A DNA stretch of 64,000 bases from Ruminococcus sp. (GCA_015066665.1 SVNX01000003.1:39074-103073), one strand, 5' to 3'. Counted from the stretch's first letter, positions 30,189-52,901 are shown. Numbers and translations: made by a program. Notes: generated by a model not told the origin, from the letters alone.

Positions 30189-30671
30189 ATGGCAAGACGC
30201 AGAAACAGAAACAGAGCCGCTGCACGCAGAGGCCCCCGTACGATATGGAATGCCTATCGCCATAAGGGCGTGTCCAGTATTGTGATCTGCCTGATCCTCT
30301 GGATCATTTACTGTGTGGCAGCATGGTTCCTCATCGGCGAAAAAATGGGCTATTACAGCGGCGAGCTGGATAATTACCTCAAGGAAATCTATTCCGATGA
30401 GCGCTGGAAGCGTACCATCATCAACGGCATCATCCAGTTTCTTCTGATGATCTGGCCGATGTGCGAATATCTCTTTGTATTCCACAGACCTGTGGGTCTG
30501 AAGGATCGCTATAAGTGGTATGTGCCGTTCATTGTGATGATCTGCATTACACTGGCCGTCGTGATTCTGGTCAATGCACTGACGCTCACACTCGGCTGGC
30601 TGACACTGGTACAGATCCTGCTGGCAATGGCTGTCATCATGATCCCCCGCTTTGCTTTCCCGCCCAGATAA
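30189..30671 (+). CDS. Hypothetical polytopic membrane protein with an Arg-rich N-terminus
   Basis: MARRRNRNRAAARRGPR followed by 4 hydrophobic helices. AGGAGGG RBS. Confidence 0.5.
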   Translation: MARRRNRNRAAARRGPRTIWNAYRHKGVSSIVICLILWIIYCVAAWFLIGEKMGYYSGELDNYLKEIYSDERWKRTIINGIIQFLLMIWPMCEYLFVFHRPVGLKDRYKWYVPFIVMICITLAVVILVNALTLTLGWLTLVQILLAMAVIMIPRFAFPPR

Positions 30672-30720
30672 TTTCCATCATCCCACCATAGAACCGGTCT
30701 TCGGACCGGTGACAACGATG

Positions 30721-30760: not shown

Positions 30761-32539
30761 GTGATATCCATGAAAAGAATCGAATTCAAGGCGTACGGCG
30801 GTACCGGTACGCTGATCGGAAGGAGCTTTGTGACGCTCATGGCGCTCAATGCCTGCGACCTGGCCGGCAGCGAGCATCAGGACGATGAGTGCGTGATTTA
30901 TCAGCTCGACTACGACGATCAGAGACCCGTCGGCAACACCACAAACGATGCTACCTACTTTAAACATGTCATCAGCTGCTATAACCAGCTGCACAACCGC
31001 GGTCTGAAATTTATCGCACCCATCAGCATGAAGATTGCACCGTACACATTGAAAAATGTCAGAGCGCACGCATACGGTGCCAATGAGGATCTGTACAGCC
31101 TGGAATCCCTGTTCTGCAGCGGCAGAAACAAGCAGGAGATCCGTGAGCTGCTCTCCTCCGCCTTTACCACCGATCCGGAATCCACAACCGAAGAGCTGGA
31201 GCGTTCCAACCGTGACGGCTGCTATGGTGACCTTGCCGTCAACGGCTTCATCAGCAAGAGACTGCTCGTGCGCCGTTCGTTCCATAATGTGGGCATGTAC
31301 AGGGATCTGGCCGGCCGTCTGGATGGTGCACAGGTGTTCTATGCCGGCTCTACCGACGGCGGTACTGCCAATACCATGATCGATAAGGACATTGAGTCCC
31401 TGCTGGACTTTCTTGCAGCAACCGGTGTTGACACCGGACACAATCGTCCCTTCCGCCTGTACGGACTGAGAACCACCCCCTACAGCAAGTTTGAACTGAA
31501 CGGCAACGATGCCGATGTTGCCATCACAGCCCCGATCCTGCGTGATAAGTTCGAAATGTCCAAGGGCGTATTCATGAACATCCAGCGTCAGAATGACAAT
31601 CCGGACAGAGAAAGCTACTACTATCTGGATCCCAACCGCTCCTACTGGCTCGATGGTCTGTTCATCGGTGCAAGCAGCACGCTCGACCTCACCTCCGCCG
31701 AGGCCAAGAAGGATAATCAGTACCACCCGTCCCATCTGGTGGAATTTGCACTGGCACAGCAGGCCATGGATGCCATTGCCGGCCGTCTGCCCCAGCTGCC
31801 CGAGTCCACCCCCCATATCTATGGCTATAACGACAGCGCCGAGGACTTCATCACACTTGACGGTTTCTTCAAGGAGAGCCGTGTGAAGTATTCCTATGAG
31901 GTGCTCACCGACAATAAGCCGCCGGAGTCCACCATTGAACTTTCCAAGTATATCCGTGCCATTCTGCTGACACTGGTGACCATCCGCGGCCAGATGATTG
32001 CTGACTTTGCCAATTATAACGACTGCCCCGACTATGTGGACGATATTTTCCATAAGTGCCATGGTGATGAGCCGACCGTGTGCCCGCTCGTTGCCACAGA
32101 GCTGAAGAAGTTCCTCGATGAATCCAAGTTCATCGTTATGACCTTCATGAACATCATGGAGTATTCCAAGTTCGACCATGGTGCACAGATCGTCCGCTTT
32201 ATGGAAAATGCCATCCAGTATATCTATGATGTGGACAATATGGGCAGACCGATCACCCGTCCGGCAGAACGCACTCTCGCAGTGATCCAGAACGATGCCG
32301 GTACCGATTTTGAAGTGCGCTTTGAGGCATTCCCCGAATTCTGGGCACTCGATGAGATGTCCCGCATCCGCTTTGAACGCGGCGGCGTATTCGGCGGCGG
32401 CAAGCTGAAGAATGAGATGTTCTACCTGAATCATCAGGGTCAGAGTGCACAGGACAGCGCTTCCATCATCGCCAATAACATGATCAAGCGTACATTTGAA
32501 ATGTATCTGTCCGTACTGAATCCCGACGGCGGTTTCTAA
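30761..32539 (+). CDS. Cluster gene A: candidate divergent tubulin/FtsZ-superfamily (Tubulin_2-like) protein
   Basis: N-terminal FKAYGGTGTLIG (T1-like), RDGCYGDLAVNG near residue 155 and FYAGSTDGGTANTMID near residue 198 (T4-like GGT). Alternative ATG start at 30770. Confidence 0.4.
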   Translation: MISMKRIEFKAYGGTGTLIGRSFVTLMALNACDLAGSEHQDDECVIYQLDYDDQRPVGNTTNDATYFKHVISCYNQLHNRGLKFIAPISMKIAPYTLKNVRAHAYGANEDLYSLESLFCSGRNKQEIRELLSSAFTTDPESTTEELERSNRDGCYGDLAVNGFISKRLLVRRSFHNVGMYRDLAGRLDGAQVFYAGSTDGGTANTMIDKDIESLLDFLAATGVDTGHNRPFRLYGLRTTPYSKFELNGNDADVAITAPILRDKFEMSKGVFMNIQRQNDNPDRESYYYLDPNRSYWLDGLFIGASSTLDLTSAEAKKDNQYHPSHLVEFALAQQAMDAIAGRLPQLPESTPHIYGYNDSAEDFITLDGFFKESRVKYSYEVLTDNKPPESTIELSKYIRAILLTLVTIRGQMIADFANYNDCPDYVDDIFHKCHGDEPTVCPLVATELKKFLDESKFIVMTFMNIMEYSKFDHGAQIVRFMENAIQYIYDVDNMGRPITRPAERTLAVIQNDAGTDFEVRFEAFPEFWALDEMSRIRFERGGVFGGGKLKNEMFYLNHQGQSAQDSASIIANNMIKRTFEMYLSVLNPDGGF

Positions 32540-32561
32540 AAAACAGAGAAGGAGTAAAGCT

Positions 32562-35500
32562 ATGAGTTATACATTTCCAGGTCAGCAATTTGCGCAGCCC
32601 GGTACACAGCCGATTGACCTTGTACAGCTGCTGGGCAACCTCCCCGAATGGGGCAAGGCCCTGAAGCTCGGCGTGGCCGGTGCACCTACATACAGAGCGT
32701 TCAATACATCCGCTGCTTACTTTGAATTCATGAACAAGCAGAATCGGGATTTCAGCGACAGTGAAGCCAACGAGTTCATCCTCTCTCCCGACCTGCCCAA
32801 GTTCCAGGATCTCAGAAAATATATGATCATCCTGGCCAATGTCCTGCTGAAGGAATACTGCGATCTGAATCTGGCTGCCAGAAAGATCGACTACATGACC
32901 GTCTGCGATTATGACGGCCAGAACGATGACCTCAAGAAGCTCATCGGTGAATGGGCCAAGGAGATCGATTCCAGAAATAACCGGGATCTCACCGAAATCT
33001 ACATCAAGGTCGACGGCACTGCCTATCCGATTGCCTTCTACTCCGAGACCAAGATGCGTGTGTATCCCTTCAATACCATCAATCGTGTTGCCCTGCAGAA
33101 GCTTCTCGGCTGGGATGAGGAGAAGAAGGACTTCACAATGGAAGCCCTTGCCAAGGATTTCAATGCCCGTCCCACCTCCGACAGAGTGCTCTATGCCGCA
33201 CTCTATGACACCAATGCAGGCCTCACCACCATCAATGCCGCAAAGGCACTGGCACTCTGGCTGACCAGAAACAGAGCCGGCATCCGTATGGAAAACGGTG
33301 CACCCTATCCGATTCAGTGCGTGGAGGTTGTCATCGACGATCAGGTGCAGAGCCTCAATCTGCCCATCCCCGCCATGCCCTACGGCCTGAAGAAGCACAA
33401 TGCCTTCTCCGAGCAGCTGCTGATCATCAAGTCCAATTCCAATGCCAGAAATCATGAGTGCGGCCTGTGCACCATCCCCAACGCCAGCATTGGTATCAAG
33501 GATGCATCCGCACCGGAGCATGCCATCGTACCTCCGCTCAGTGATTATCTGATCGGTCTGATCCGTTCCCAGCAGGTGGAATTCAAGGGTGCTGAAGTGG
33601 CCAAGAACGGCGGCGATTATCAGGCAACCATCCATCTGTGCATCCAGGGTGCGGACTGCAGCTTCACCTGGGACTATGCGGCCGGGGATGTGAGAAAGTG
33701 TGACAACTTCCCGCTGGTATCCGTCCTCAAGTGCCCCAATGAAGCCACCATTGCCCGTCTCTACCGCTGCGACTATGAGCCGGTCGACAGAACACCTGCC
33801 TCCTATCTGGACGGCTATGAGATCAAGCTGGGTCTCGCACAGGGCCATGACAATAATTATGAGCTCCAGTTCAATGTGAATGTCACCGTGAACCAGGATG
33901 AGCTGTATTACTTCGGCGTGCGTTATCACAATTCCGATGAGGGCCGCACCTATTCCTGCGGTTACCTGTTCTATGATAGGGCGCACTCCCTCTACAATGC
34001 CACCAATGCATCCGATTCCACTTCTGTTCTGATCGATGACTCCAACAACATCGCACAGATCGCAGTACTCGATACGGACACCAACAAGGTGAGCGCCTAT
34101 AACGTATACAACGACCGCATCTTCTTCTTCAACCGCAACAGCCGCAATGACTTCGATGCAAGAAACGGCAAGATCTGGGGTGAACCCAATACCACCATCT
34201 TTGAAGTGGCCGGCGGCAGCATGTTTGCACTGGCACCCTTCAGCAGCGAGTTTGCTGACATGGTGGCCAATAAGCAGATCAGACTGACTCGTGCCGACCT
34301 GAAGCAGGACGGCCATAACTGGGAGTTCTTCGTTGAGTTTGAGTACAAACGCAGAAACATGAAGACCAAGACCAGAGTCTACAAGCCCGAGGAGCAGTAC
34401 ACCTCTCCCAATCCGCCCTTCCTGTATGCTGTGCAGACCGTGAATGCCCAGACTGCAAAGCCCGGCTATGATGTCATCATGGTGCAGAATATGCGTGTGG
34501 CAGGCGGCGTGTCCCAGAGCGGCAAGTCCAATGTCCTCGATTCCAACGACCTGCAGTTCCAGATCGGCAAGAAGAGCATTGTTTCCACACTCTTTGTGGA
34601 TCAGCAGGAGCTGGATCAGCACAACCCCAGAACCTATATCAAAATCTACGGCAGCCCCTCCGACGGCAAGCCCTATTATGGTCAGATCTCCCTGCCTCTG
34701 GCATCCTACAGCCTGCTTGACGGTTTCCACGCACTGAAGGATGATTCCACCGACTGTGCCGCCGTTCTGCTCGTGAACAATATGGGTGCCGGCCAGCCCA
34801 AGCAGATCATCACCGGCCGTGTATTCGATGACAATCTCTTCCTGATTGCAAGAGAATCCTCCCGCAGTGCCTACACAGAGTATAAGTCCTGGCGCAACAG
34901 CGGTCTGTTTGTCGATGTGGAAGACATGCCCATGGAGCATCGTGACGGTAAGGAATATGAGGCTATCTTCCCGTTCAGCCTGCAGATGCTGCGTAATCTG
35001 AACAGCGGCAATCTCCAGCTGTCCCAGGGCCACAGACCCGTTGTGAGATATGACCGTGAATCCAAGTGCTACCGTGTGTCCATCTTCATCGAAAAGGGCA
35101 ACGGTGAGCAGGATCCCTTCACCATGTCCTACCGTGAAAGCCAGATCGTCCGCTGTGACAATCTGCCCTTCATCGTGCCGCTGAAGGATAACGAGAACCA
35201 TATGCACATTGTCCGCTTCAACAACGAGGCGCAGCAGCATCTGCGTGACCACGCCGACGGTACCCGCATGATCATCGACTGCATGAACGGCGAGAAGGCT
35301 GTTCCTGTGGAAAAGGAGAAGATCGTGTCGCTCGACGGCAGTAATGTGATTCTGCGTGTGGCTGCCCCCAAGGAGAATGCACAGTGCGTATGCCATGTGC
35401 TGTATCAGGCAGCAGAGCCCTTCGGTGACGGCGTGTATTCCGTGCATTCCGATGCCACCGGTGCACAGCATGTATTCGATTACAATGCCAAGGAAAACCG

Positions 35501-38285
35501 TGTCAGAGAGATCACTGTCTTCACGGATTATATCATGTGGACAAGCCTCTTTGCTGACACCTTCGCAAACGGTACAGAGCCGGTTTCCGTTTCTGACAGA
35601 GGCCGCCGTGATTCCCGTATCTATTCCATCCCGATCACAATGGAATTCTCCCGCCTCATGGAGGAGAGAGGCCTGAAGATTGCGGATTACTCCCATGTCA
35701 AGTACCACACCGATGTGAACGATGTGGACAGCGGCATCACCGACAGCAATGCCGATCTCTATGTCACCATCAGTCTCACCGGCCTGAAGGGCGGATCGTC
35801 CACCGTTCAGAAGTGCTTCGATAAGAGCCACATCGTCGGCTTCGGCCGTTACCCGCTGCCGACACTGACGGTATTCCCGTTTGTGAATTTCGTGGCCAAC
35901 CATACTTATGGCGAAAAGCTGCGCGGCAAGAGCCTCTGGCAGCAGTATTCCTACGCCAAGTTCACAAAGGAAACCGAAACCGCAGAACGTGACAGCAATG
36001 CCCGTACCGAGGCACTCGGTGCCCGTGTTGAGTTCTGGATCAACGGCAAGAAGGTTGAGTTCCAGAAGAGAAGCACCAAGATCATGGACTCCATGGAGGT
36101 CAATGAGCAGACCCGTATGGAAGTTGCCAAGGTTTCCGGATGGGGTCACTACATCCATATGAAGTACGATGGATCCAATACAGTTGCTCCCACAAAGCCC
36201 GTGGACAGCCAGTGGAACGGCAAGGAGCTCGGCTGCATCATCATGAAGCCGGCGCCTACCAAGGAGGTCGATTCCACCCGCAATGCCACTGTCGGTGTGG
36301 ACTTCGGTACCAGAAATTCCATCGTGGCCATCTATCCCGACGGCGTGACAGCTGTGAGCTTCCCGTACCACGGTCATCAGGAGCTGCAGAAGATCGTCAT
36401 CCCCGGCATGGATGATGTCGCCTTCAAGGATTTCTCCAACCTGAGCTATATTCCGCACTTTGACGGCAGAGCCGATATGGGCGTGGGCTGCGGTAAGTTC
36501 GCTTCCACCGTTATGGCCTACTCCGTTGTTGAAGCTGCCAATGAAGTGCTCACTCCCTATGACCGTGGCTTCGTGCCCAATGTACAGGGCGACGTGCTCA
36601 AGAGAATCATGAACCGCATGACCCGTCCCGGTTCCATGGCCGACCTGCTCGGCTTCTACAGCGATCTGAAGATCTCCACAAGTGCAGATACTGCCGATCC
36701 GAATCTGATCCGCATCATGGACCGCAATGTGCGTCTGTTCATCAAGAGCGTTATGTTCCATACCGCACTCAACTGCTATCAGGCAGGCTGCGGCAAGATC
36801 AATGTCCGCTTCTCCGTACCGTCCGAGATGTTCGTCAAGAATCTCAAGCCCGTATGGCTCGAGGCACAGAAATATATCGATTCCTACTTCCCCGAGCAGG
36901 CACGAGGCAATATCACCGTGGGTGAGTATGCAACCGAGGCCAAGGCCCTGTTCAAGCATCTGAGCAGCAATATGAACGGCACACCGCCCAAGTATTCTGC
37001 CATCACCGACGGCGGTGACGGTACCTATGACTTCACCATCAACAAGCTCGTCGGCAACCAGCTGACCAATCCCAATGCCTTCTCCCTGCGTTATGCCGGT
37101 CAGCAGATCATGACCGATAGCGTGAATGCCTTCTATGACCATCTGGTACGCCGCAACGGCGGTCAGCGCAGTGAGGAAGTCAAGTCCGTCTTCAGAGGCC
37201 TCTGGAAGTCCGGTGACGGCTCCGAGGCTGTGCTGGAAACCCGTGAGCAGCTGATCACGCAGCTCTCCGATTACCGCAATATCCCCGGCGGCACCGACCG
37301 TGAACGTGAGAAGACCATGGTGCTGATGCTCGTTGAGCAGTTCGGCATCGACTGCCAGAAGCTGCGCAACCCCAATGCCCGCAACCTGATGCAGATCGTG
37401 ACCCCCGAATATACCAACTTCGTCAGAATGATCCAGTACAAGTTCCTGTTCCTCTTCAACGTACTGGGTGAACAGATCCGCAAGAATATCCGTCTGGAAG
37501 AGGACGATGTGACAAGCTTCAACATCTACCTCTACGGCGGTACCGCACAGGCACTGACCATTGCAGAACCGCTCTGTCAGGGCAATCTGGCCGTATACGG
37601 CAGCCCCGGTGCCGGCAACCTGCCCATGGTGGTCTTCATTGATGCAATGCTGGATCTGCCGAGAAATGTCAACGGCGAAAAGATCATCCTCAAGTTCATC
37701 CCCGCAAAGGACTCTGAGAAGCGTGAGATCGCAAGCGGTCTGATCGCAATGCAGAGAACCGAGCTGCATAACTTCAATGTGGATGGCGGCCAGAATGTGG
37801 AGATCCCGAGCTTTGCCGGTGCAGCCCCCGCTGCTCAGCAGCAGGAACCCGCAGAAGGCGGATTCGGTGATTTCTTCAGCGGATTCGGCAATATGGGCGG
37901 CATGGGCTTCGATATGAATCCCGCACCGCAGCCCGCAGCCCCCGGTATGGATACGGGCGCAGAGAGAAACGCCAGAAAGCCCAGAACGCTCGATGGCTTC
38001 ATCGACAGCCTCAAGGAAGTACTCTGCAACCGTACCGTAGAGCTGCCGCAGGGTGAGTATTCCATCGACAACTTCCTGCCCTTCATGGACGAGAACGGCC
38101 AGCCCATCTACCTGTCCCGCATTCTCGATGATCAGATTGTCAGAAATGCAATGCTCTCCGAGCTCACAACACTGTGGAATACCGTATGCACTGAGAACAG
38201 CGACATCGACGATCCCGATATGCTCTACCATATCTACACACTGAAGATGGTAGGCCTTGCCATTGAGGCATATCTCAGAAAGTAA
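32562..38285 (+). CDS. Cluster gene B: 1907-aa giant protein with a C-terminal actin/Hsp70-like (ASKHA) ATPase domain
   Basis: GAAGGAG RBS. Ordered motifs VGVDFGTRNSIVA (phosphate 1), RFSVPS, YATEAKA, ITDGGDGTYDFTI (phosphate 2) and IYLYGGTAQ (adenosine). The N-terminal ~1230 aa have no recognised domain. Confidence 0.7.
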   Translation: MSYTFPGQQFAQPGTQPIDLVQLLGNLPEWGKALKLGVAGAPTYRAFNTSAAYFEFMNKQNRDFSDSEANEFILSPDLPKFQDLRKYMIILANVLLKEYCDLNLAARKIDYMTVCDYDGQNDDLKKLIGEWAKEIDSRNNRDLTEIYIKVDGTAYPIAFYSETKMRVYPFNTINRVALQKLLGWDEEKKDFTMEALAKDFNARPTSDRVLYAALYDTNAGLTTINAAKALALWLTRNRAGIRMENGAPYPIQCVEVVIDDQVQSLNLPIPAMPYGLKKHNAFSEQLLIIKSNSNARNHECGLCTIPNASIGIKDASAPEHAIVPPLSDYLIGLIRSQQVEFKGAEVAKNGGDYQATIHLCIQGADCSFTWDYAAGDVRKCDNFPLVSVLKCPNEATIARLYRCDYEPVDRTPASYLDGYEIKLGLAQGHDNNYELQFNVNVTVNQDELYYFGVRYHNSDEGRTYSCGYLFYDRAHSLYNATNASDSTSVLIDDSNNIAQIAVLDTDTNKVSAYNVYNDRIFFFNRNSRNDFDARNGKIWGEPNTTIFEVAGGSMFALAPFSSEFADMVANKQIRLTRADLKQDGHNWEFFVEFEYKRRNMKTKTRVYKPEEQYTSPNPPFLYAVQTVNAQTAKPGYDVIMVQNMRVAGGVSQSGKSNVLDSNDLQFQIGKKSIVSTLFVDQQELDQHNPRTYIKIYGSPSDGKPYYGQISLPLASYSLLDGFHALKDDSTDCAAVLLVNNMGAGQPKQIITGRVFDDNLFLIARESSRSAYTEYKSWRNSGLFVDVEDMPMEHRDGKEYEAIFPFSLQMLRNLNSGNLQLSQGHRPVVRYDRESKCYRVSIFIEKGNGEQDPFTMSYRESQIVRCDNLPFIVPLKDNENHMHIVRFNNEAQQHLRDHADGTRMIIDCMNGEKAVPVEKEKIVSLDGSNVILRVAAPKENAQCVCHVLYQAAEPFGDGVYSVHSDATGAQHVFDYNAKENRVREITVFTDYIMWTSLFADTFANGTEPVSVSDRGRRDSRIYSIPITMEFSRLMEERGLKIADYSHVKYHTDVNDVDSGITDSNADLYVTISLTGLKGGSSTVQKCFDKSHIVGFGRYPLPTLTVFPFVNFVANHTYGEKLRGKSLWQQYSYAKFTKETETAERDSNARTEALGARVEFWINGKKVEFQKRSTKIMDSMEVNEQTRMEVAKVSGWGHYIHMKYDGSNTVAPTKPVDSQWNGKELGCIIMKPAPTKEVDSTRNATVGVDFGTRNSIVAIYPDGVTAVSFPYHGHQELQKIVIPGMDDVAFKDFSNLSYIPHFDGRADMGVGCGKFASTVMAYSVVEAANEVLTPYDRGFVPNVQGDVLKRIMNRMTRPGSMADLLGFYSDLKISTSADTADPNLIRIMDRNVRLFIKSVMFHTALNCYQAGCGKINVRFSVPSEMFVKNLKPVWLEAQKYIDSYFPEQARGNITVGEYATEAKALFKHLSSNMNGTPPKYSAITDGGDGTYDFTINKLVGNQLTNPNAFSLRYAGQQIMTDSVNAFYDHLVRRNGGQRSEEVKSVFRGLWKSGDGSEAVLETREQLITQLSDYRNIPGGTDREREKTMVLMLVEQFGIDCQKLRNPNARNLMQIVTPEYTNFVRMIQYKFLFLFNVLGEQIRKNIRLEEDDVTSFNIYLYGGTAQALTIAEPLCQGNLAVYGSPGAGNLPMVVFIDAMLDLPRNVNGEKIILKFIPAKDSEKREIASGLIAMQRTELHNFNVDGGQNVEIPSFAGAAPAAQQQEPAEGGFGDFFSGFGNMGGMGFDMNPAPQPAAPGMDTGAERNARKPRTLDGFIDSLKEVLCNRTVELPQGEYSIDNFLPFMDENGQPIYLSRILDDQIVRNAMLSELTTLWNTVCTENSDIDDPDMLYHIYTLKMVGLAIEAYLRK

Positions 38286-38420
38286 AATGCCGTCCCCGTC
38301 CGGCCGGATGTGTCCATTCCGGACGCATCCGCCGGTGCGGCGGTGTGAAAATCGCAGTCCCTCGCTGCTTCGCAAGGTGCGGACAGTGCAGGGATCCAGT
38401 ATCTGAAAAGTGGTGATAGA

Positions 38421-41544: not shown

Positions 41545-41573
41545 AAATAAATAGGAATAGGAGGAGATTTGAT

Positions 41574-43145: not shown

Positions 43146-43178
43146 AATCAAATAACATGATACGGAGAAGAGGATGCT

Positions 43179-44621: not shown

Positions 44622-44719
44622 TATCCCCCTGCGGTGCAGGGTACAAATCGTTACGGAAAATGGCCATGCTGCGTCGTGGCCATGCCGTAGCGCATTTTGC
44701 ATTTATGGAGTGCTGATAT

Positions 44720-46258
44720 GTGAGGCCGGAGACCGGCGGCAGATATCAGTACTGCAATCAAATATATATCAGCAGAATGGAGGCGTTACGCTTGGATAAA
44801 GCAAGACCGAATATCGCTTTGGTGGAAGAAAACAAAGCAATGAAGCAGGAAATTCGTGCCATGGAGGAGCACCATCGCAAGCAGCTGGCCGAAGTGAAGG
44901 CTGCACTGGAACAAAAAGAACAGGCACTTGCCGCACTGCGTCAGCAGACGGAGAGCATGGAGCAGCAGACCGCCCAGCTGCAGGCTGCTGCCGCACAGGC
45001 ACAGTCCGAGGCAGCCGCACTGCGTGAGGGAAGTGAAAAGCTGCAGAACCAGAGTGCCCGCTTCAAGAGGGATTATGCTGCCCTGCAGGAGAAATATTAT
45101 AAGCTCAACGACAGCTCAAGAGAACGCATTGCGGCACTCCAGAAGGAACTGGCCGCAGTACATGCAGAGAATCCCGAAAGTCCGCAGGAACAGCTGCAGG
45201 CACTGCAGCAGGAGAAGGAAGACCTTCAGCAGAAGCTTGCGGCACAGAAAACAAGATACACCCGTGAGCTGAGCTTCTGGGAGGAGAAGTACCGGAAGTT
45301 CTATGATGATGCCATGCTCAAGATCAGTGCGAGAGACAATGCCATTGCCGTTCTCCGCCGCCAGAACCAGACCGATGAGACGGAAAAGCTGATCGCAGCC
45401 AAGAACGAGGAAATCACCGTTCTGCGTAAGGAACTGACCGAGCGCACCCAGGCCTTCCAGCGTGAAATGAGCCTGCTTGAACAGCGCCACCGCAAGCTGT
45501 ATGAAAGTGCCATGGCAAAGCTTAATGCCAAGGACAGAGAGATCGCAGAGCTGCGTCACCGCTATGAGACATCCGACATGGCAAGAGCAACGGATGCCCT
45601 GCGTCAGGAGAATGAACGCCTCAGCAATGAGCTGGAAATGCGTAAGGATACTCATGCAAGAGAAATCAAAACCTGGCAGAAACGCCACAAGAAGCTCTAT
45701 GAGGATACCATGGAGCAAATCCGTCGCCTTGAGAATGAGCTGGCCGCTTACCGCAAGGAAGAGCCCGGCCGGAAGGGCTTTGCTACCCCCGAAGAGGAAT
45801 TGCTCGCCTGGGATCTGGAATACCAGCGTGAGCTGAGCGGCTGGGAGACCCAGTACCGCAAGCCCGCAGAGGATACCTCTGTGCAGGAAGAGAATCAGCC
45901 GGTATCTCTTTCGGATATTCAGTCCATCGCAAGGGACGAGGCGCATGCCGGAAAGCGCATTCCCACCGCTCAGAAGCCTGCGGCCAAGCCCGCAGTGCTC
46001 AGCCCCGTGGATGTGCTCCGACAGGAGAACGAGAAGCTCCGTCAGGCACTCGAGGCTGAACAGCAGGCACATCAGCAGGACAAGGCCGCACTCACCGCAG
46101 AGCGTGAGAAGCTCGCATCCCAGATGCTCTCGGGTCTTGATCAGCGAGACCGCATCATCGAGGCACTGCAGACAAGCCTTGCTGCATGGCAGACTTCTTC
46201 CGCAGAGCTGAGAAATCTTTGTCAGCCCGCCGATCGGGAGCAGGGCGGCAAGGCATAA
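44720..46258 (+). CDS. Cluster gene G: soluble coiled-coil protein with ~65-aa internal repeats
   Basis: GTG start after GGAG, with an alternative ATG at 44777. Repeated R-E-x-(S/K)-x-W-x-x-(K/R)-(Y/H)-(R/K)-K-(F/L)-Y-(D/E)-x-(A/T)-M units. Confidence 0.65.
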   Translation: MRPETGGRYQYCNQIYISRMEALRLDKARPNIALVEENKAMKQEIRAMEEHHRKQLAEVKAALEQKEQALAALRQQTESMEQQTAQLQAAAAQAQSEAAALREGSEKLQNQSARFKRDYAALQEKYYKLNDSSRERIAALQKELAAVHAENPESPQEQLQALQQEKEDLQQKLAAQKTRYTRELSFWEEKYRKFYDDAMLKISARDNAIAVLRRQNQTDETEKLIAAKNEEITVLRKELTERTQAFQREMSLLEQRHRKLYESAMAKLNAKDREIAELRHRYETSDMARATDALRQENERLSNELEMRKDTHAREIKTWQKRHKKLYEDTMEQIRRLENELAAYRKEEPGRKGFATPEEELLAWDLEYQRELSGWETQYRKPAEDTSVQEENQPVSLSDIQSIARDEAHAGKRIPTAQKPAAKPAVLSPVDVLRQENEKLRQALEAEQQAHQQDKAALTAEREKLASQMLSGLDQRDRIIEALQTSLAAWQTSSAELRNLCQPADREQGGKA

Positions 46259-46288
46259 CCTACATATTGACAGAAAGGAGCCGCACTG

Positions 46289-47716
46289 ATGCAGGATCTG
46301 TTTGAACGTGTGCGTGAATATTATTATCAGGAGCGCGGCCGGAGCTGGGAACAGAACTGGGAGCCGTATCAGGTGGAATCCCAGGGCCGCTGGACACGGA
46401 TTTCGTCTCGGAATCGGGATGATCTGCGCAGACTGCATGCGGCAGTGTTTCTGTTTGCGAAAAACGGCGTGCTCGGGCAGGAGGAAGCCCGTGCCATGCT
46501 GGAGGAAAAAATGGAGCTGGCCGGCCGGATCCGCACGCTTGGCAGTGCATCGAACTTTACGGTTACTGTGGATTATGCCGCCGTGTATCCCATTATGGAA
46601 GAGAATGTGACGGTTGGCTATGATGTACTGCTGCGGTACATGCCGGAGCAGAGCGTGTGTGAACGTCTCGGCCGTGATATTCCCTTGCAGGAACGTGTCC
46701 GCTGCCTTCTTCGGACAGATACGCCCGAAGCGGCAGCCCAGCGTGATGCACTTGGAGCACAGCTTGTCCGCAGCATTGCCATGGCCATACAGGAGATGGC
46801 ACATGCCGGACTGCACCACGGCCACATCAGCCCCGATACCCTCCTTGCACGCAGCAGCGAGGGTGTGACTGAATTTGCACTGCAGGTGCCGGGGCTGGAG
46901 CGCTTTCTGAAAAGCGATGCGGAGGATCGTCTGGTGACGGATCTGTATACTGCTCCCGAGCTGCTGCTTGATCCGGCGCAGAATTTTGACATGCAGACCG
47001 ATCTGTATGCCGCCGGTCTGCTGCTCTATCAGCTGCTCAATGAGGGAAAGCTGCCGTTCGAGTCGGAGAAGGTTTCGCCGGATGAGGCCGCACGCATCCG
47101 CATGCAGGGTGCAGAGGAATTGCCCCTCCCGAGAAACGGCTGCCGTCTTTTGCAGTACATCGCAAGAAAATGCTGTGCTCACGACAGGTCGCATCGCTAT
47201 GCGGATGCGGCGGAGCTGCTTGAAGATCTGCGGCGTATGGGCAGCAGCTTCCTGACCGGATATGATCCGGCAGAAGTGGTGACCCGTTCGGAACGTGCCT
47301 GCACAGAAGCGACAGAGGCGGCTGCTGCGGAAGAAGCCTCCTGGGCTGAGAAGTACCATGCGCTCGAAGAAGAGACCGCCCGTCTTCTCAGAGAAAAGGA
47401 TGAGCAGCTCCGCAGACTGCACGAAACCGCCGCACAGTGGCGTGCCTACAGTGAAAAATATCAGGAGAATGCAAAGATGTGGCAGAACTACGCCAATCAG
47501 CTCAAGCAGCAGGTGGATTATCTGCAGCAGAGTCTCCAGCAGAATCCGCAGCCGGTTCGTCAGGATATGATGGCCCAGCGTATGGCATCACCCATGCCTG
47601 CGGACGGCGGCGTTAAGGATACACTGAACAATGTCTTCTCCTCCATTTTTGGCGGAGAACAGAACAAGCCCCCCATGCCGGACGGGGATATCTTCAAAAT
47701 GCTCGGCGGAAAGTAA
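46289..47716 (+). CDS. Cluster gene H: kinase-fold protein lacking catalytic residues (pseudokinase candidate) with a coiled-coil tail
   Basis: Kinase C-lobe pattern GLHHGHISPDTLL..QVPGLERF..YTAPELL..DLYAAGLLLYQLLNEGKLPF..HDRSHRY. HRD is replaced by HGH and DFG by PGL, and there is no G-loop. Confidence 0.65.
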   Translation: MQDLFERVREYYYQERGRSWEQNWEPYQVESQGRWTRISSRNRDDLRRLHAAVFLFAKNGVLGQEEARAMLEEKMELAGRIRTLGSASNFTVTVDYAAVYPIMEENVTVGYDVLLRYMPEQSVCERLGRDIPLQERVRCLLRTDTPEAAAQRDALGAQLVRSIAMAIQEMAHAGLHHGHISPDTLLARSSEGVTEFALQVPGLERFLKSDAEDRLVTDLYTAPELLLDPAQNFDMQTDLYAAGLLLYQLLNEGKLPFESEKVSPDEAARIRMQGAEELPLPRNGCRLLQYIARKCCAHDRSHRYADAAELLEDLRRMGSSFLTGYDPAEVVTRSERACTEATEAAAAEEASWAEKYHALEEETARLLREKDEQLRRLHETAAQWRAYSEKYQENAKMWQNYANQLKQQVDYLQQSLQQNPQPVRQDMMAQRMASPMPADGGVKDTLNNVFSSIFGGEQNKPPMPDGDIFKMLGGK

Positions 47717-47740
47717 CACGGAAGGAAAGGAGCCTTGGAA

Positions 47741-49453
47741 ATGCAGGATCTGTTTGAACGTGTAAGAGAATATTATTATCAGGAACGCGGCAGAGGCTGG
47801 GAAATGAACTGGGAACCGCATCAGCTCGATCTTTCCGACCGCTGGAGCTGTATTGCGCCAAGAAATAAAAATGACCTGCGCCGGATGTTTGTCGGCACGC
47901 TTCTGTATGCAAAGGCAGGTCTGACCTCCCGAGAGGAGGCCGAGGCACTCTTCATTGAAAAGAATCGTCTGGCCGGAAAAATTCAGGATCTCGGTGACTA
48001 CACGCTGTATACGACCAAAGTGGATTATGCCGTTGTCAAGGATATCGAGGAGGACGGCGAATATGTCGGCTTCGATGTGCTCCTGCGCTATGAACCGGAG
48101 CAGTCCGCTGTGGAGCAGGCTGCCGCAAGTGCCGCACAGCGTGACCGCATCCGGCATGTTCTGCATGATGGTTCACCCGATGCGGAAAAGCTGAGAAACC
48201 GGATCGGCGAGCAGCTTGTGCACAGCATTGCACTCGCCTTGCAGGAAATGGAGCGTGTCGGGCTGCATCACGGTCATATCAATCCCGAACATCTCATGCC
48301 CTATGAGCACGACGGCACACTTGAATTCCGTCTGCATATTCCGGGCTTTGACAGTCTGCTCAAATCCGATGCGGATGACCGCATGGTCGTCGATTACTAC
48401 AGTGCACCGGAGCTGATCAATGACAGCGCACAGCCATTCGATGTCAGCACGGATCTGTATTCCATGGGCATTCTTCTCTATCAGCTGCTCAATGAGGGGA
48501 AGCTGCCGTTTGAATCGGATACCGTTTCTCCCGACCAAGCTGCCCAGCTGCGCAGCCAGGGTACAAAGGAGATACCGCTGCCGAAGCACGGCTGTCGGCT
48601 GCTTCAGTATATCGCACGCAAGGCCTGTGCCTTTAGCAGGGTGCATCGTTATGCCAATGCCGCCGATGTTCTGGAAGATCTCAAGCGCATCGACAGCAAG
48701 GTGCTCACGGGCTATGACCCCATGGAGATTGTGACCTCCGGCGGAAAAGTCCCCGCACCGAATCAGGTCGGTACAGCGGATGCCCGTGCACTGCAGGCTG
48801 CCCGTGCAGAAGCAGAAATGCTGCGTGCCGAGCTTGCCAGAATGAAAGCCGAGGCGGACAGCGCCCTTCAGGCCGCAAAAGCCTGTGAGACACTGCACAG
48901 GGAAAAATCCGTGCTGGAAGTGAAGAATAAACAGCTTGAAGCCAAGAATAAGCAGCTTGAAGCCAAGAATAAGCAGCTTGAGAGTAAGTGCAGCAAGCTT
49001 GAAGTTGCCTGCAATATGTTGGAAATGAGCACCATTGTCAGTCAGAAGGATCGTGATGACAGGGAAGCGGCTCTCAGGCGTGAGTCGGCACTCCGGAAGG
49101 AGAACGATACGCTCAAAGCTGCCTGTGAACAGCTCAGACACGAACTGGCCGACTGTCGGAAGCAGGCAGAACAGGCCAAAGCGAAGCCCGCACCGGTGGA
49201 TACGGGACTGCAGAAAAAAATGCAGAGCCTTGAGACCCAGCTTGCCGAAGCCCGTGCAGAACTGGATGTGTGGCAGAAACGTGCTGAAAAATGGAAGAAC
49301 CACGCCTGGATGATGTATGCCCGTCAAGGCAGCGGTGCCCCCATGCCGTCCCATGAGAATACATCAGGGGTGACGCATGAGGAAACCATGCGCAAAAAGC
49401 GTGAGGCAGTCATTGATGCACGTTTTGAGCAGGAGCTGAGACAGAAAAAATGA
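47741..49453 (+). CDS. Cluster gene I: pseudokinase-candidate paralog with a long coiled-coil tail
   Basis: The first ~85 nt are nearly identical to gene H (MQDLFERVREYYYQERGR). GLHHGHINPEHLM..IPGFDSL..YSAPELI. Confidence 0.65.
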   Translation: MQDLFERVREYYYQERGRGWEMNWEPHQLDLSDRWSCIAPRNKNDLRRMFVGTLLYAKAGLTSREEAEALFIEKNRLAGKIQDLGDYTLYTTKVDYAVVKDIEEDGEYVGFDVLLRYEPEQSAVEQAAASAAQRDRIRHVLHDGSPDAEKLRNRIGEQLVHSIALALQEMERVGLHHGHINPEHLMPYEHDGTLEFRLHIPGFDSLLKSDADDRMVVDYYSAPELINDSAQPFDVSTDLYSMGILLYQLLNEGKLPFESDTVSPDQAAQLRSQGTKEIPLPKHGCRLLQYIARKACAFSRVHRYANAADVLEDLKRIDSKVLTGYDPMEIVTSGGKVPAPNQVGTADARALQAARAEAEMLRAELARMKAEADSALQAAKACETLHREKSVLEVKNKQLEAKNKQLEAKNKQLESKCSKLEVACNMLEMSTIVSQKDRDDREAALRRESALRKENDTLKAACEQLRHELADCRKQAEQAKAKPAPVDTGLQKKMQSLETQLAEARAELDVWQKRAEKWKNHAWMMYARQGSGAPMPSHENTSGVTHEETMRKKREAVIDARFEQELRQKK

Positions 49454-49475
49454 TCGTTGAAAGGAGCGAAGGAAT

Positions 49476-51626
49476 ATGCAGGATCTGTTCGACCGTATCG
49501 CCGAATATGAAGTGCTGGAACGATATAAAGGTTGGGGCGCAGACTGGAAGCCCTATAAAGAGGAAAGAGAAGGACGCTGGGTAAGAATCGCACCGAAGAA
49601 TCCGGATGACCGCCGCCGTCTCTATGTGAGTCCCTTCCGTTTTGATGAGAAGGGCATCTACGATCAGAATGAAGCACTCACTTTGCTTGAGGAAAAGCGT
49701 GCTTACATGGAAAAGGTGCAGAACCTCGGCAAAACCGCAGTCTATACCTGCGGAGTGGATTATGCCGCAGTGAAGGAACTGGAGGAGGGCGGACAGACCG
49801 TCGGGTTTGATGTGCTGCTGCGCCATGTACCCATGGTTCCGGTGCAGACATATCTGCGGACGAATGACGCTGCCGCCCGTAAAGCAAAGCAGCTGATGCA
49901 GGGAACCGATCCTGATACGGAGGAGGCCAGAAACCGTGCCGGTGAAATGCTGGCCGGCCACCTGACACTTGCACTGCAGGAAGTGTACCATGCCGGCCTC
50001 AGCCATGGACATATCAATCCTGAGCATATCCTGATGGAAGCGGACGGCAGCAGTGAGGAGATCCGTCTGAGCATTCCCGGTGAGGATGCCCTTTTCAAAT
50101 CCGCAGCCGATGATCGGAAGACAACGGATTACTATACCGCCCCCGAGCTGATTGCGGATGAATCGAGACCGGTGGACATGCAGTCGGATCTGTATTCCGT
50201 CGGCCTGCTGCTTTATCAGCTGCTCAATGAGGGGAGGATGCCCTTTGAATCGGATGCCGTGTCCCGTGAGGAGGCCGCTCACATCCGAAACAGCGGCGAG
50301 CAGCCGATTCCAGCACCGAAGAACGGCAGCCGGCTTCTGCAGTACATCGCTGTCAAGTCCTGTGCCCATGACCGTGCGGATCGCTATCAGGATGCGCCCC
50401 AGCTTCTTGAGGATCTCAAGCATGCCGACAGCAAGGTGCTCAACGGGTTTGCGCTGTCTTCACTTGTGACCATCGGTGCAGCAGCCAAGCAGAGAAGAGC
50501 CGCCGCTGCTGCGGATAAGCAGCGTCAGGCGGAACAGGTCAGAGCAGAAGCCGCCCGCATGCAGCAGGCACAGAAAAGTGCACAGGCAGCTCCTGTCGAT
50601 CTTAGCAAGAAGACGAAAGCAAAGAAGGAGCCGCCGAAGCCCGCCCCCATGCCCGTGAATATGCCGCAGCAGCATCCGTCGGCCTCCGGCGGCAGTGCAT
50701 ATCAGAATGCAGCCGCTTCCTCCGGCGGTGCTCCCGTACAGAATGCCCCCATGCATCAGGGGGCCATGCAGGCAGCGCCCCGTCCGCAGCCCATGCCGCA
50801 GCCCGGCTATGCCGGCGGTCAGGCGGGCCCCCGCAAGCGTTTCAATCCTGCATGGATTCTTGTGCCCATCATTCTTGTTGTCATCATTACCATTGCACTT
50901 CTCATTGGTGCCATCAGCATGATGAGCAAGCTCGGTTCCGATCAGGGCAGTCTTTCGGCGAACAGCAGTGGTTCCGTTTCCGCAGAAAGGGCTGAAAGTG
51001 CCGCACCCAAGGAGAGCCTTGCCCCCACAGAGGCACCGACCGCCATCCCCACCGAACCGCCGACGCAGCCCCCCACGGATCCGCCCACGGAACCGCCGAC
51101 CACCGAACCGCCCTATGTGCCCCCGACGTACATCGTGGTACAGGGCAAGTATACATGGGAAGAGGCACAGGCGGAATGTAAGGCAAGGGGCGGCCATCTT
51201 GCGACAGTCCACTCCAATGAAGAGTGGCTTCTGCTGATGGATACCGTCAGCAATGCACAGCTGTCCAACAGCAATCTCAAGTACCTCTGGATGGGTGGCC
51301 TGTCCGAGCTGAAGGAACGTCCCGACGGTGAAATGTATGCCGAATTCAAGTGGGTTGACGGTTCCGATGTTACCTATATTACTGATAAGTCCCGCTTTGG
51401 CCATTGGTTCTATAATGCCGAGCTGGATATCTATGAGCCTTCCGGATACGATGCCTATGAGTATCTGAAGAACAACAAAAAAATCGCAGAGCCGTATCTG
51501 CTGCTCTGGAACGTGGCAGCCAAGAAGGGAGCCGATCTGAAGTGGTCGCTCAATGATGTGGGCGACGTCTCCCCCTATCCGCAGTACAAGGAGAGCAATA
51601 TGGGCTTTGTCATGGAGCTTGACTGA
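49476..51626 (+). CDS. Cluster gene J: pseudokinase-candidate paralog, TM helix, Pro/Thr linker, extracellular C-type lectin-like domain
   Basis: GLSHGHINPEHIL..IPGEDAL..YTAPELI. RKRF followed by TM WILVPIILVVIITIALLIGAISMM. Then YTWEEAQAECKARGGHLATVHSNEEWLLL..LWMGG..WVDGS. Confidence 0.65.
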   Translation: MQDLFDRIAEYEVLERYKGWGADWKPYKEEREGRWVRIAPKNPDDRRRLYVSPFRFDEKGIYDQNEALTLLEEKRAYMEKVQNLGKTAVYTCGVDYAAVKELEEGGQTVGFDVLLRHVPMVPVQTYLRTNDAAARKAKQLMQGTDPDTEEARNRAGEMLAGHLTLALQEVYHAGLSHGHINPEHILMEADGSSEEIRLSIPGEDALFKSAADDRKTTDYYTAPELIADESRPVDMQSDLYSVGLLLYQLLNEGRMPFESDAVSREEAAHIRNSGEQPIPAPKNGSRLLQYIAVKSCAHDRADRYQDAPQLLEDLKHADSKVLNGFALSSLVTIGAAAKQRRAAAAADKQRQAEQVRAEAARMQQAQKSAQAAPVDLSKKTKAKKEPPKPAPMPVNMPQQHPSASGGSAYQNAAASSGGAPVQNAPMHQGAMQAAPRPQPMPQPGYAGGQAGPRKRFNPAWILVPIILVVIITIALLIGAISMMSKLGSDQGSLSANSSGSVSAERAESAAPKESLAPTEAPTAIPTEPPTQPPTDPPTEPPTTEPPYVPPTYIVVQGKYTWEEAQAECKARGGHLATVHSNEEWLLLMDTVSNAQLSNSNLKYLWMGGLSELKERPDGEMYAEFKWVDGSDVTYITDKSRFGHWFYNAELDIYEPSGYDAYEYLKNNKKIAEPYLLLWNVAAKKGADLKWSLNDVGDVSPYPQYKESNMGFVMELD

Positions 51627-51627
51627 T

Positions 51628-52749
51628 ATGAAGAAATCGCTTATGATCACGCTTTGCGTCTGCATTCCCTGCAGCGTGGTGTGCCTTGCAGCTATTGTGC
51701 TTGGCAGCGTCTACCTGAGCAGCCGTGAGGCGGCCGGGCGGACAGAAGACGGAAAAGCTGCACTTGAAACGTATTTTTCACCGATGACAACGGAAACACC
51801 GGACGCAGCAGCCATGCAGACCGCCGAAACGGAAGCTCTCACCGAATCCGAAGTCCCCGCTGAAACCGAAGCCCCCACGGAAACAGCGCCCCCTGCGGAG
51901 ACGGGGCCTGTGGATTATTCCAATGCCGGCGGCGGTACCAGCAGTGCCAATGTGTTTAACGGCGGCTTCATCGCCACGGATGGCGAACGGGAATACTTCC
52001 GCGGCAACGACGGCGGAATGTATTACAATGAGATCGGATCGTCGGAAGCCTATAAGCTGCTGGACAATGCCATCTTGTATCTGAATGTCCAGGGCGGATG
52101 GCTGTACTTTGCCGATCAGACCAACCAGTGCATGGCGAAGATGCGCACGGATGGCACGGACTATCAGATCCTCTATCCGGCCAATGTGCACGAGGTCAAT
52201 GTCAGCGGCAGCTACATCTACTTCTGCAGCGATACGCAGCTGATGCGTATGCGTACGGACGGCATGGAGCTGGAGACACTGTGCGACGGCAAAATCTGGT
52301 TTCTGAACGTCGTCGGACAGGAGCTGTACTTCTGCCGGATCGGGGATGAGCGTGCCATGTGCCGGTGCAGTGTGGACGGATCGGACTTCGAGACCATCAT
52401 TGCCGCAGAGGTCTATGACATTCTGGTCTACGGCGGCTATATCTATTACTGCTTCGGCCGTGATGAGCGTTATCTTTACGCCCGCAGCCGTGATACCGGT
52501 GAAGTCACACAGATCACAAATAATTATACCCGCTGGATCAATACCGACGGCATTCATGTATATTACACGAACTTTGAAGGCCATACCGAAGAAGGTGTGG
52601 GTTACGGCAATACCATGTACCGTGTCGATCTCCACGGCGGCGGCAATGAACAGCTCTTCACAGATATCGTGGAGGGCATGTGCATCCAGAACGGCAAGCT
52701 GCACTACATGAATACCGACCTTGAAAAGAAATATGTGGAGCTGTATTGA
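51628..52749 (+). CDS. Cluster gene K: membrane-anchored DUF5050-like beta-propeller protein
   Basis: ATG is 1 nt after the gene J stop. N-terminal TM, an acidic T/E/A linker and repeated blades (..GGWLYF.., ..GSYIYF.., ..GQELYF.., ..GGYIYY.., ..GIHVYY.., ..NGKLHY..). Confidence 0.6.
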   Translation: MKKSLMITLCVCIPCSVVCLAAIVLGSVYLSSREAAGRTEDGKAALETYFSPMTTETPDAAAMQTAETEALTESEVPAETEAPTETAPPAETGPVDYSNAGGGTSSANVFNGGFIATDGEREYFRGNDGGMYYNEIGSSEAYKLLDNAILYLNVQGGWLYFADQTNQCMAKMRTDGTDYQILYPANVHEVNVSGSYIYFCSDTQLMRMRTDGMELETLCDGKIWFLNVVGQELYFCRIGDERAMCRCSVDGSDFETIIAAEVYDILVYGGYIYYCFGRDERYLYARSRDTGEVTQITNNYTRWINTDGIHVYYTNFEGHTEEGVGYGNTMYRVDLHGGGNEQLFTDIVEGMCIQNGKLHYMNTDLEKKYVELY

Positions 52750-52872: not shown

Positions 52873-52901
52873 TTGACAAATGGTCTGCAATATGGTACAA
52901 T
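52873..52901 (+). promoter_or_regulatory. Sigma-70 type promoter opening the next transcription unit
   Basis: TTGACA, 17-nt spacer, TACAAT. Confidence 0.65.

Follow-up and report, generated by a model that had tools for sequence, protein, structure and literature searches.

The 64,000-nucleotide (nt) stretch of DNA from Ruminococcus sp. analysed here (GCA_015066665.1 SVNX01000003.1:39074-103073; hereafter the window, with positions counted from its first letter) contains a conserved unit of 16 genes, all on the + strand at 25624-52749 (~27 kb). The original prediction had placed an uncharacterised eleven-gene cluster (A to K) at 30761-52749 and had described it as a self-contained apparatus, either a cytoskeletal scaffold or an NTPase-based conflict system. 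We found that relatives of the cluster, which fall into three tiers, share a core of five components, namely a lipoprotein, one or more small transmembrane (TM) proteins, a tubulin-like protein (A in the window), a giant ATPase of the ASKHA (actin/Hsp70-fold) type (B) and a bitopic protein made of a TM helix, a coiled coil and a C-terminal domain (CTD; protein E). The cluster is most likely a nucleotide-driven, envelope-spanning scaffold or sensor, and we favour, with modest confidence, the reading that it is a membrane-spanning assembly built on this five-protein core and derived from the predicted FtsZl1/DO-GTPase systems. Its genes are as follows.

25624-26307, +: u227, secreted protein with a signal peptide, a domain of ~150 amino acids (aa), a Thr-rich stalk and a C-terminal TM anchor
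26398-28152, +: u584, lipoprotein with the lipobox LTAC, core component
28196-29581, +: membrane-anchored GH3 protein, predicted beta-N-acetylglucosaminidase of the NagZ/YbbD type
29595-30173, +: u192, small 4-TM protein with a basic N-tail, core component
30189-30671, +: u160, small 3-4-TM protein with a basic N-tail
30761-32539, +: A, predicted NTPase, divergent in the FtsZ/tubulin superfamily and related to Tubulin_2/FtsZl1
32562-38285, +: B, 1907 aa, with an N-domain, repeated modules, a predicted ASKHA ATPase, a linker and a helical C-domain
38421-39836, +: C, paralog of an internal module of B, without the ATPase
39829-41544, +: D, eight to nine repeats (P/E/K-rich spacer plus 14-residue unit), then a conserved C-terminal globular domain
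41574-43145, +: E, predicted outside N-domain, TM helix, cytoplasmic coiled coil with a Trp-containing motif (W-motif) and conserved CTD, core component
43179-44621, +: F, N-terminal TM anchor, long coiled coil and E-type CTD
44720-46258, +: G, soluble coiled-coil protein with weak coiled-coil-type matches only
46289-47716, +: H, pseudokinase, W-motif coiled coil and FGG tail
47741-49453, +: I, pseudokinase and long coiled coil with the W-motif
49476-51626, +: J, pseudokinase (predicted inside), TM helix, Pro/Thr linker and C-type lectin (predicted outside)
51628-52749, +: K, N-terminal TM anchor and predicted extracellular DUF5050 beta-propeller

Gene order in relatives provides the main evidence. 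Tier 1 comprises the window and Oscillospiraceae metagenome-assembled genomes (MAGs), tier 2 the Butyrivibrio contig L001 and L014, and tier 3 L012, L016, L017 and L018. A-like and B-like genes are adjacent in 14/14 distinct informative loci, and the order u227-u584-(GH3)-u192-u160-A-B-C-D-E is kept in six GTDB species genomes and in further contigs. Order and content are conserved in at least nine divergent tier-1 loci at 35-58% protein identity, and the core is retained down to about 22-28% identity. The tier-2 order runs from a 229-aa surface protein through a 559-aa lipoprotein, two 4-TM proteins, A and B (1200-1300 aa) to a 677-678-aa protein with an N-domain, a TM helix, a linker and a CTD, and then a TM protein of about 180-190 aa. 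The tier-3 order is a lipoprotein of 554-629 aa, a TM protein of 123-166 aa, a Tubulin_2 protein, a B-like protein (1067-1207 aa) and a TM-coiled-coil-CTD protein. The conserved unit starts five genes earlier (25624-30671) than was first stated, because the upstream genes keep synteny with A and B across a hairpin at 30693-30710 that had been taken as the boundary: u227 to u160 are colinear with A-B in all close relatives recovered (L003-L011, GH3 excepted in L009), u227 is syntenic in all tier-1 loci (33-40% identity), and counterparts of three of the five genes (the lipoprotein and both small membrane proteins) extend to the most distant relatives.

Sequence comparisons link the components across the tiers. 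BLASTP connects the lipoproteins (u584 to L001, 1e-33; L001 to L012, 8e-7; u584 to L016, 7e-5) and the B proteins (window to L016, 4e-19), the A-like proteins are linked pairwise too, and u192 matches L014_162 at 7e-7. In L001, L012, L016 and L018 the A-like gene has a lipobox-bearing homologue of u584 upstream of it, and lipoboxes are present in all core lipoproteins of every tier. A hidden Markov model (HMM) for the CTD shared by E and F recovered the tier-2 proteins at 9e-7 and 3e-4 and, iterated once, those of tier 3 (1e-4, 1e-3 and 0.04; search space of 100 sequences), each match lying at the C terminus of the positionally equivalent gene. Synteny in other genomes supports the view that the cluster is a self-contained, conserved, membrane-spanning apparatus, as had been proposed. 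The accessory genes vary between relatives. GH3 is found in most tier-1 loci and neither in L009 nor in tiers 2 and 3, the more distant versions also lack the lectin and kinase parts, and the copy numbers of the E/F, kinase-like and B genes differ (in L010, three are of the E/F type and one is kinase-like). This variation, together with promoter-like matches inside the region, including one of 10/12 at 51619-51647, could be taken to indicate a fortuitous run of unrelated same-strand surface, signalling and hypothetical genes. We regard such a run as very improbable, since it is contradicted by the synteny described above, by the retention of the core at low identity and by the domains common to several cluster genes.

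Protein A is predicted to be a strongly diverged member of the FtsZl1/Tubulin_2 branch. Neither A nor its 28 relatives, singly or as profiles, gave a sequence match in Pfam, NCBIfam, PADLOC, PHROG or PDB, and the curated tubulin-clan models (PF00091, PF13809) produced no Pfam match in the 29 A-family members even at E<=10. We assign A to the tubulin branch because distant members of the A profile carry Tubulin_2 and hhalign joins them to A. A search with the A profile returned 43 clusters at E<=1e-3 among 1.84 billion representatives; the weakest members (P0062-P0074, 500-580 aa) match Pfam Tubulin_2/PF13809 at up to 47 bits (gathering threshold 27) and, weakly, PF00091, and the A family aligns with them over 447 columns (hhalign probability 99.85%, E 1.4e-30). 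The AlphaFold model of A has a predicted local distance difference test score (pLDDT) of 88.9 and a predicted template-modelling score of 0.92, and its best named Foldseek matches are tubulins (about 0.008-0.014), gamma-tubulin, CetZ and phage tubulin (E 0.008-0.05 overall). The earlier description of A as tubulin-like is thus upheld only through a transitive profile relationship with Tubulin_2/FtsZl1 and through fold matches that are weak. A T1 motif, AYGGTG, follows strand 1 of the model and a T4 motif, GSTDGGTANT, follows strand 4, both being invariant in the family; the T4 motif is a degenerate form of GGGTG[ST]G (G to D, G to A and G to T), and the tier-3 relatives of A have GSxFGGTGA[ST] at this position. 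A conserved Q-x-H-x2-H-x2-E block occupies residues 320-328. Like the FtsZl1 branch, A appears to be alignable with FtsZ only to about helix H5. Its start is likelier at ATG 30770 (MKRIEF...) than at GTG 30761, as homologues start at the equivalent Met and the database protein has 589 aa. The family is rare, with 29 clusters among 5.8 billion proteins, and its loci occur in 6 of 185,579 GTDB species genomes, all of them rumen or gut Oscillospiraceae/Ruminococcus MAGs. A phage origin was rejected, as a scan of viral contigs found no relatives of A; there are no PHROG links either.

The partner of A is equally divergent in sequence. Neither the whole of B nor a profile built from its C-terminal 700 residues found a sequence match in Pfam, NCBIfam, PADLOC, PHROGs or PDB. 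The model of residues 1200-1907 (pLDDT 68.8; core 70-93) nevertheless gave 121 PDB matches at E<1e-3 in Foldseek, headed by the Hsp70 nucleotide-binding domain, MreB, actin and BeeR (probability 1.00, E to 2e-6). The fold search agrees with the ATP-binding motifs, phosphate-1 VGVDFGTRNS (1244), phosphate-2 ITDGGDGTYD (1481) and adenosine IYLYGGT (1655), whose key residues are invariant in the family alignment, and both support the original assignment of B as actin/Hsp70-like. The C-terminal part of B (about aa 1230-1740) is accordingly a predicted ASKHA ATPase with intact ATP motifs. On its N-terminal side are a conserved N-domain and repeated modules, including one that C also has, and on its C-terminal side a disordered IPSF/GFGD linker and a helical C-domain; the linker carries an IP(S/N)F(A/G)G motif related to the motifs of D. 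This architecture is kept across the tiers (hhalign 99.9%, E 1e-33 for module and ATPase; 84-96% for the N-domain), and a homologue search with the ATPase alignment recovered six fragments only. An Hsp70/DnaK chaperone was rejected as an identity for B, which has no Hsp70 sequence match and no substrate-binding domain and is accompanied by no GrpE or DnaJ gene in the cluster. The module that B had been said to share with C was recovered by BLASTP (1e-7) and by hhalign (C 312-464 to B 540-715, 98.3%, E 2.6e-14), a second, weaker copy being present in B; it could be a beta-sandwich. In L003, a second, shorter paralog of B (1120 aa; 17632-20994) lies immediately after B. With ATP motifs that are in part degraded (FGVDIGARTT, ITDGGDRSYD), it may be an inactive partner subunit.

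The upstream genes would supply much of the outer and membrane parts of the assembly. The lipoprotein u584, like C, matches nothing by sequence in Pfam, NCBIfam, PADLOC, PHROGs or PDB, whether searched singly or as a profile. The GH3 gene is well recognised (Pfam GH3, 5e-81; NCBIfam beta-N-acetylhexosaminidase, 9e-54); its nearest PDB entries are 6k5j and YbbD (1e-55 to 1e-47), and, by sequence, its N-terminal catalytic domain is nearest the NagZ-type enzymes. A GH25-GH3 fusion (800 aa) lies immediately upstream of the u227 homologue in L003 and L010. The small polytopic proteins of tiers 1 and 2 (window 29595-30671; L001 8791-9965; L014 83-1069) start with a strongly basic 'MAR(K/R)...' cytoplasmic tail, and an electrostatic contact between these tails and the very acidic P/E-rich repeats of D is possible. 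The TM segments and their flanking charges were as first described, and the predicted topology of E, F, J and K follows from these charges, with the coiled coil and CTD of E inside and its N-domain outside. The latter arrangement is also indicated by one tier-3 E-like protein, which has a signal peptide before the N-domain. E may start at ATG 41586.

Several proteins of the cluster cross-reference each other, as had been claimed. E and F share their CTD (BLASTP 4e-12), and a coiled-coil segment with a Trp recurs in E, H and I (2.5e-9 and 2e-4). FGG/FGD-type motifs are common to B (GFGD linker), D (GGFGD repeats) and H (FGG tail). D and the linker of B also carry an (E/D)IPxF motif, which may resemble the FtsZ C-terminal peptide that binds FtsA. 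In every D orthologue, tandem GGF(G)D-type motifs set in P/E/K-rich spacers are combined with a C-terminal domain that is conserved; repeat unit and copy number differ between orthologues. In the window, the repeat array (39934-40925) has 8.1 copies of a 123-nt unit; because these are 93% identical at the DNA level, the array is recent and probably length-variable between strains. A match of D to NCBIfam PorACj was rejected, as it reflects the short FFGGFGD motif and not homology.

H, I and J are paralogs, as stated originally, with 46-54% identity over ~335 N-terminal aa (BLASTP). Their Pkinase matches (1e-8 to 1e-10) are above the gathering score and cover the C-lobe only, and the kinase-like domain of J is nearest StkP and PknB (3e-10). 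Compared with these two kinases, HRDLKPxN is replaced by (H/S)HGHI(S/N)PE(H/T) and DFG by (V/I)PG, and no Gly-rich loop or VAIK motif aligns in H, I or J. Because the catalytic residues, including the HRD Asp and the DFG Asp, are replaced, the three proteins are pseudokinases, in line with the first description. The C-type lectin of J (Lectin_C) and the beta-propeller of K (DUF5050, 7.5e-39) were likewise found, and the lectin gene of L011 is 52% identical to J. A scan of JGI metagenomes with the pseudokinase alignment gave one weak match on a short contig. No nuclease, protease, toxin or transporter had been recognised in the cluster, and searches of Pfam, NCBIfam, PADLOC and PHROGs revealed none either, nor was a pore detected. 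A hidden P-loop NTPase was rejected because the Walker-A-like strings are due to chance and unconserved.

Based on these features, we propose how the assembly might work. An outer layer of u584, u227, GH3, the N-domain of E, the lectin and the propeller would contact or trim wall or other glycans, and a membrane layer of u192, u160 and the TM helices of E, F, J and K would couple it to the inner layer. The bitopic and pseudokinase proteins would transmit or localise across the membrane, and A and B would assemble nucleotide-dependently on this membrane platform. Contacts would be made by the CTDs of E and F, the W-motif coiled coils (E/H/I) and the multivalent IPxF/GGFGD motifs (B, D and H). 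Because the cluster holds no enzyme effector, we propose a structural output, namely a scaffold or block formed locally at the envelope. More tentatively, the five-protein core may be an unrecognised bacterial cytoskeletal device in which A and B co-assemble on a trans-envelope platform, formed by the lipoprotein, the small membrane proteins and the bitopic coiled-coil tether, and turn wall events into a cytoplasmic filament or lattice, the 16-gene version being the most elaborate and divisome-like with its pseudokinases and FG-type linkers. We consider this device unlikely.

Two families of described systems come closest. A literature search for a cluster of tubulin-like, Hsp70-like and kinase genes, or for a tubulin-based anti-phage system, found only PMC2875224 and PMC7159879. 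FtsZl1 operons contain vWA proteins, protein kinases, a distinct GTPase and many membrane proteins, their FtsZl1 branch is alignable with FtsZ only to about helix H5, and membrane remodelling was proposed for them by Makarova & Koonin 2010 (PMC2875224). The window resembles these operons in that A is related by profile to Tubulin_2 proteins, its similarity to FtsZ and tubulin covers the N-terminal nucleotide-binding part (T1-T5) with the later part off the canonical T6-H7-T7, and kinase genes, coiled coils and many membrane proteins lie nearby, the role being predicted only in both cases. It differs in that A reaches no Pfam tubulin model and has no fused coiled coil or alpha-helical C-domain, and that vWA, P-loop GTPase and OmpA genes are missing from the window. 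The published description includes neither the lipoprotein nor the ASKHA partner that is obligatory here. A 2023 survey still lists Tubulin_2 proteins as uncharacterised outliers.

The second family consists of the GTPase-centric (DO-GTPase + GAP1-N2) conflict systems 'with or without tubulin and HSP70 components' of Kaur et al. 2020, in which inactive kinases and multimerising 'effectors' were noted and the tubulin theme and the HSP70/GrpE theme are non-overlapping (PMC7159879). Distant relatives of A and B lie on Firmicutes-type contigs next to genes of these systems. The L012 core has a DO-GTPase gene (PF19993) after it, and HicAB and an FtsK/SpoIIIE gene of 1490 aa are close by; before the L018 core come a vWA protein of 917 aa and a faint DO-GTPase2 protein, and after it a transglutaminase-like gene. 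This type of neighbourhood overlaps with the FtsZl1 operons. The window further resembles these systems in being membrane-proximal, with extracellular wall- or ligand-binding domains and inactive kinases, in having NTPases that may multimerise in place of classical effectors, and in its rare and patchy distribution (with a mobile-element context in L001), variable accessory genes and many TM components. Unlike in those systems, the defining DO-GTPase, GAP1 and FNIII-repeat proteins were undetected in the window, tier-1 and tier-2 loci, the tubulin-like and non-DnaK ASKHA genes are always adjacent, and the ATPase of B is unrecognised by Hsp70 models. Because DO-GTPase, GAP1, FNIII and vWA are absent, we treat the window locus as a derived relative and not as a member of the class. 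In the window version, DO-GTPase, GAP1 and vWA are replaced by the pseudokinases H, I and J together with D, C, GH3, the lectin, the propeller and u227. The earlier statement that the combination matches no described system is not supported, as distant relatives of the A/B core lie in DO-GTPase/vWA neighbourhoods of predicted systems. The kinship is distant and probably that of a lineage-specific elaboration of tubulin-containing, membrane-proximal NTPase systems described computationally only. New, as far as the searched literature goes, are the obligate core of lipoprotein, TM protein, tubulin-like protein, ASKHA protein and TM-coil-CTD protein, and its elaboration with pseudokinases, lectin and propeller.

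These neighbourhoods raise the alternative that the cluster is a genuine but degenerate conflict system of the DO-GTPase/vWA type, directed against phages or other invaders and with defence as its actual role, in which an envelope perturbation sensed outside would lead A and B to assemble and to halt the cell or block entry (abortive infection or exclusion). The tier-3 core amid DO-GTPase, vWA and a HicAB neighbour, the location of tier 2 on an integrase/relaxase element, the rare and patchy distribution and the classing of tubulin/HSP70 GTPase-centric neighbourhoods as conflict systems (PMC7159879) all speak for it, and the kinase-like domains of H, I and J match the PADLOC models PD-T4-6, Mad6 and MkoA, as generic kinase similarity only. 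We nevertheless find it doubtful, as PADLOC finds nothing for A, B and C, the cluster has no toxin, nuclease or pore-forming effector, A has neither viral relatives nor PHROG links, and the window locus lies outside any defence island. Moreover, the conflict assignment of the reference systems is itself a prediction.

A different alternative is suggested by the pairing of a tubulin-superfamily protein with an actin-fold ATPase, which recalls the FtsZ-FtsA-EzrA-StkP/PknB divisome of Firmicutes. The cluster could be a paralogous, divisome-like morphogenetic machine that builds or maintains a specialised envelope, cell-shape or cell-cell feature of these Oscillospiraceae, with A/B corresponding, component by component, to FtsZ/FtsA, E/F to EzrA-type membrane tethers and J to a PknB/StkP-type wall sensor turned pseudokinase, and with GH3 remodelling peptidoglycan locally. 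Both systems have N-terminally anchored cytoplasmic coiled coils, a protein that joins a kinase fold through a TM helix to an extracellular glycan-binding part, and a wall hydrolase. The analogy gains from the proximity of J to StkP and PknB and of GH3 to the YbbD/NagZ peptidoglycan-recycling enzymes, from the GH25-GH3 gene upstream in L003 and L010, from a chromosomal, host-like context with stable synteny within the clade, and from the membrane remodelling proposed for FtsZl1 operons (PMC2875224). However, no cluster protein belongs by sequence to the divisome families, the kinases are catalytically dead, a lectin stands in place of PASTA, B (1907 aa) has large extra domains, and the cluster has no peptidoglycan synthase, SEDS or penicillin-binding protein gene. 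Its presence in so few species representatives (6/185,579) argues against a general morphogenetic need and marks it as accessory, and the distant versions, which sit on mobile elements, have no GH3, lectin or kinase parts. The (E/D)IPxF motif of D and the B linker would fit the analogy, but its resemblance to the FtsZ tail is tentative. We therefore judge a divisome-like machine to be rather unlikely.

Type VIIb secretion was also compared. The layout of J (pseudokinase, TM helix, extracellular part) resembles EssB/YukC, F and H have weak WXG100/ESAT-6 matches (3e-4 and 0.06) that are below threshold and inside long coiled coils, and an FtsK/SpoIIIE gene lies near the L012 core. However, no EssC-type ATPase, EsaA or small WXG100 gene is present in or near the window cluster, and this identity was rejected.

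Several observations weigh against our preferred reading of a core-based assembly derived from FtsZl1/DO-GTPase systems. The structural likeness of A to tubulins is weak (template-modelling score about 0.2-0.26) and interleaved with Rossmann-fold dehydrogenases of the short-chain dehydrogenase/reductase type, and no T7-type catalytic loop was identified in A, so that its polymerisation is only a possibility. DO-GTPase1/2, GAP1, FNIII (fn3) and vWA were not found in any of the 16 window proteins at Pfam E<=0.1. The statistics that tie the E-like CTD and the small membrane proteins to tier 3 are modest, and it is spacing only that argues for co-transcription of all 16 genes. A peptidoglycan-type glycosidase inside the cluster fits a wall housekeeping-like role equally well, and the cluster has host-like G+C, lies beside polA and fab genes and is on no evident island. 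Finally, this system and the related ones are computational predictions.

As to function, both alternatives first put forward, a cytoskeletal scaffold and an NTPase conflict system, may still apply. We lean slightly towards a surveillance or conflict role over a housekeeping morphogenetic one, because the cluster is rare, has a mobile-element context in tiers 2 and 3, varies in its accessory genes, contains pseudo-enzymes and is akin to predicted conflict systems. An accessory role is also indicated by the location of tier 2 beside an integrase and relaxase/MobC genes (the L001 block is flanked by tyrosine integrase and relaxase/MobC/primase genes), by that of tier 3 beside HicAB, and by the young repeats of D. 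Conversely, a role in wall or membrane remodelling is favoured by GH3, the GH25-GH3 genes of L003 and L010, the host-like G+C and the polA/fab neighbourhood.

To our knowledge, Tubulin_2/FtsZl1 is the least understood FtsZ/tubulin branch, and we know of no member that has been studied experimentally. The invariable pairing of a Tubulin_2 sub-branch with a large actin/Hsp70-fold ATPase and a fixed envelope set turns it into a concrete five-component unit. If A and B do co-assemble, they would be a rare bacterial case of obligate tubulin-like and actin-like partners; if the cluster is defensive, it would represent a mode of defence with a structural, not an enzymatic, effector. The A, B and lipoprotein families, the CTD of E and F and the C-terminal domain of D are absent from Pfam and NCBIfam and could be set up as new families. 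In practice a limit is set by the close carriers, which are all uncultured rumen or gut MAGs.

The eleven + strand open reading frames (ORFs) described first at 30761-52749 were recovered with matching coordinates, and their junctions were reproduced exactly (gaps of 22 and 135 nt, an 8-nt overlap, and gaps of 29, 33, 98, 30, 24, 22 and 1 nt). Of the limits then proposed, the downstream end held and the upstream start did not. L011 also finishes with kinase-like, Lectin_C and DUF5050 genes, and the promoter predicted behind the cluster at 52873-52901 is present (TTGACA-17-TACAAT with a TG extension). The upstream hairpin, ACCGGTC-TTCG-GACCGGT, is real and lies in the u160-A spacer. It was rejected as a terminator or boundary, as it has no T (U) tract, the folding of the spacer is unremarkable against shuffles (z -1.2) and synteny is unbroken across it. 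The claim that there are no internal terminators was sustained, with no intergenic + strand terminator-like site in a 33-53 kb scan; the total number of such sites is not in excess (25, against 18.4 +/- 4.2 in shuffles). A promoter-like site ahead of u227 is positioned after a divergently oriented gene. The two upstream signals are listed here.

25503-25531, +: promoter-like site TTGACT-17-TATAAT, 11/12, ahead of u227; consensus match only
30693-30710, +: hairpin with a 7-bp stem and a TTCG loop; not terminator-like

Long mechanical ORFs lie antisense to B (2275 aa; 32484-39311, - strand), D, F and G-H, with no evidence for genes; they go with a coding strand that is strongly purine-skewed (AT) at 40-50 kb. 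Scanning the window for Rfam families and tRNAs gave no matches. Among the relatives, L011 has a split lipoprotein (341+220 aa; 300-2039), a split B (1222+639 aa; 6299-11920) and a propeller split in two, which are either frameshift assembly errors or signs of a decaying copy. In two otherwise distant loci (L010 25734+; L018 16450-17613) the cluster is directly followed by a transglutaminase-core protein.

Downstream of the cluster, a separate unit at 52873-56150 stands behind the consensus extended -10 promoter and encodes a lipoprotein (about 52960-53574), a DltB-like MBOAT protein (TIGR04091, 1e-47) and a DHHW protein, the latter two being an envelope O-acylation pair. It is followed by a low-GC stretch (0.36-0.47) at 56231-64000, which contains a large serine recombinase (56231-57910, minus strand; Resolvase, Recombinase, Zn_ribbon_recom and DUF4368) and a MobA/VirD2 relaxase (59922-61403). 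This stretch is probably an integrated mobilisable element.

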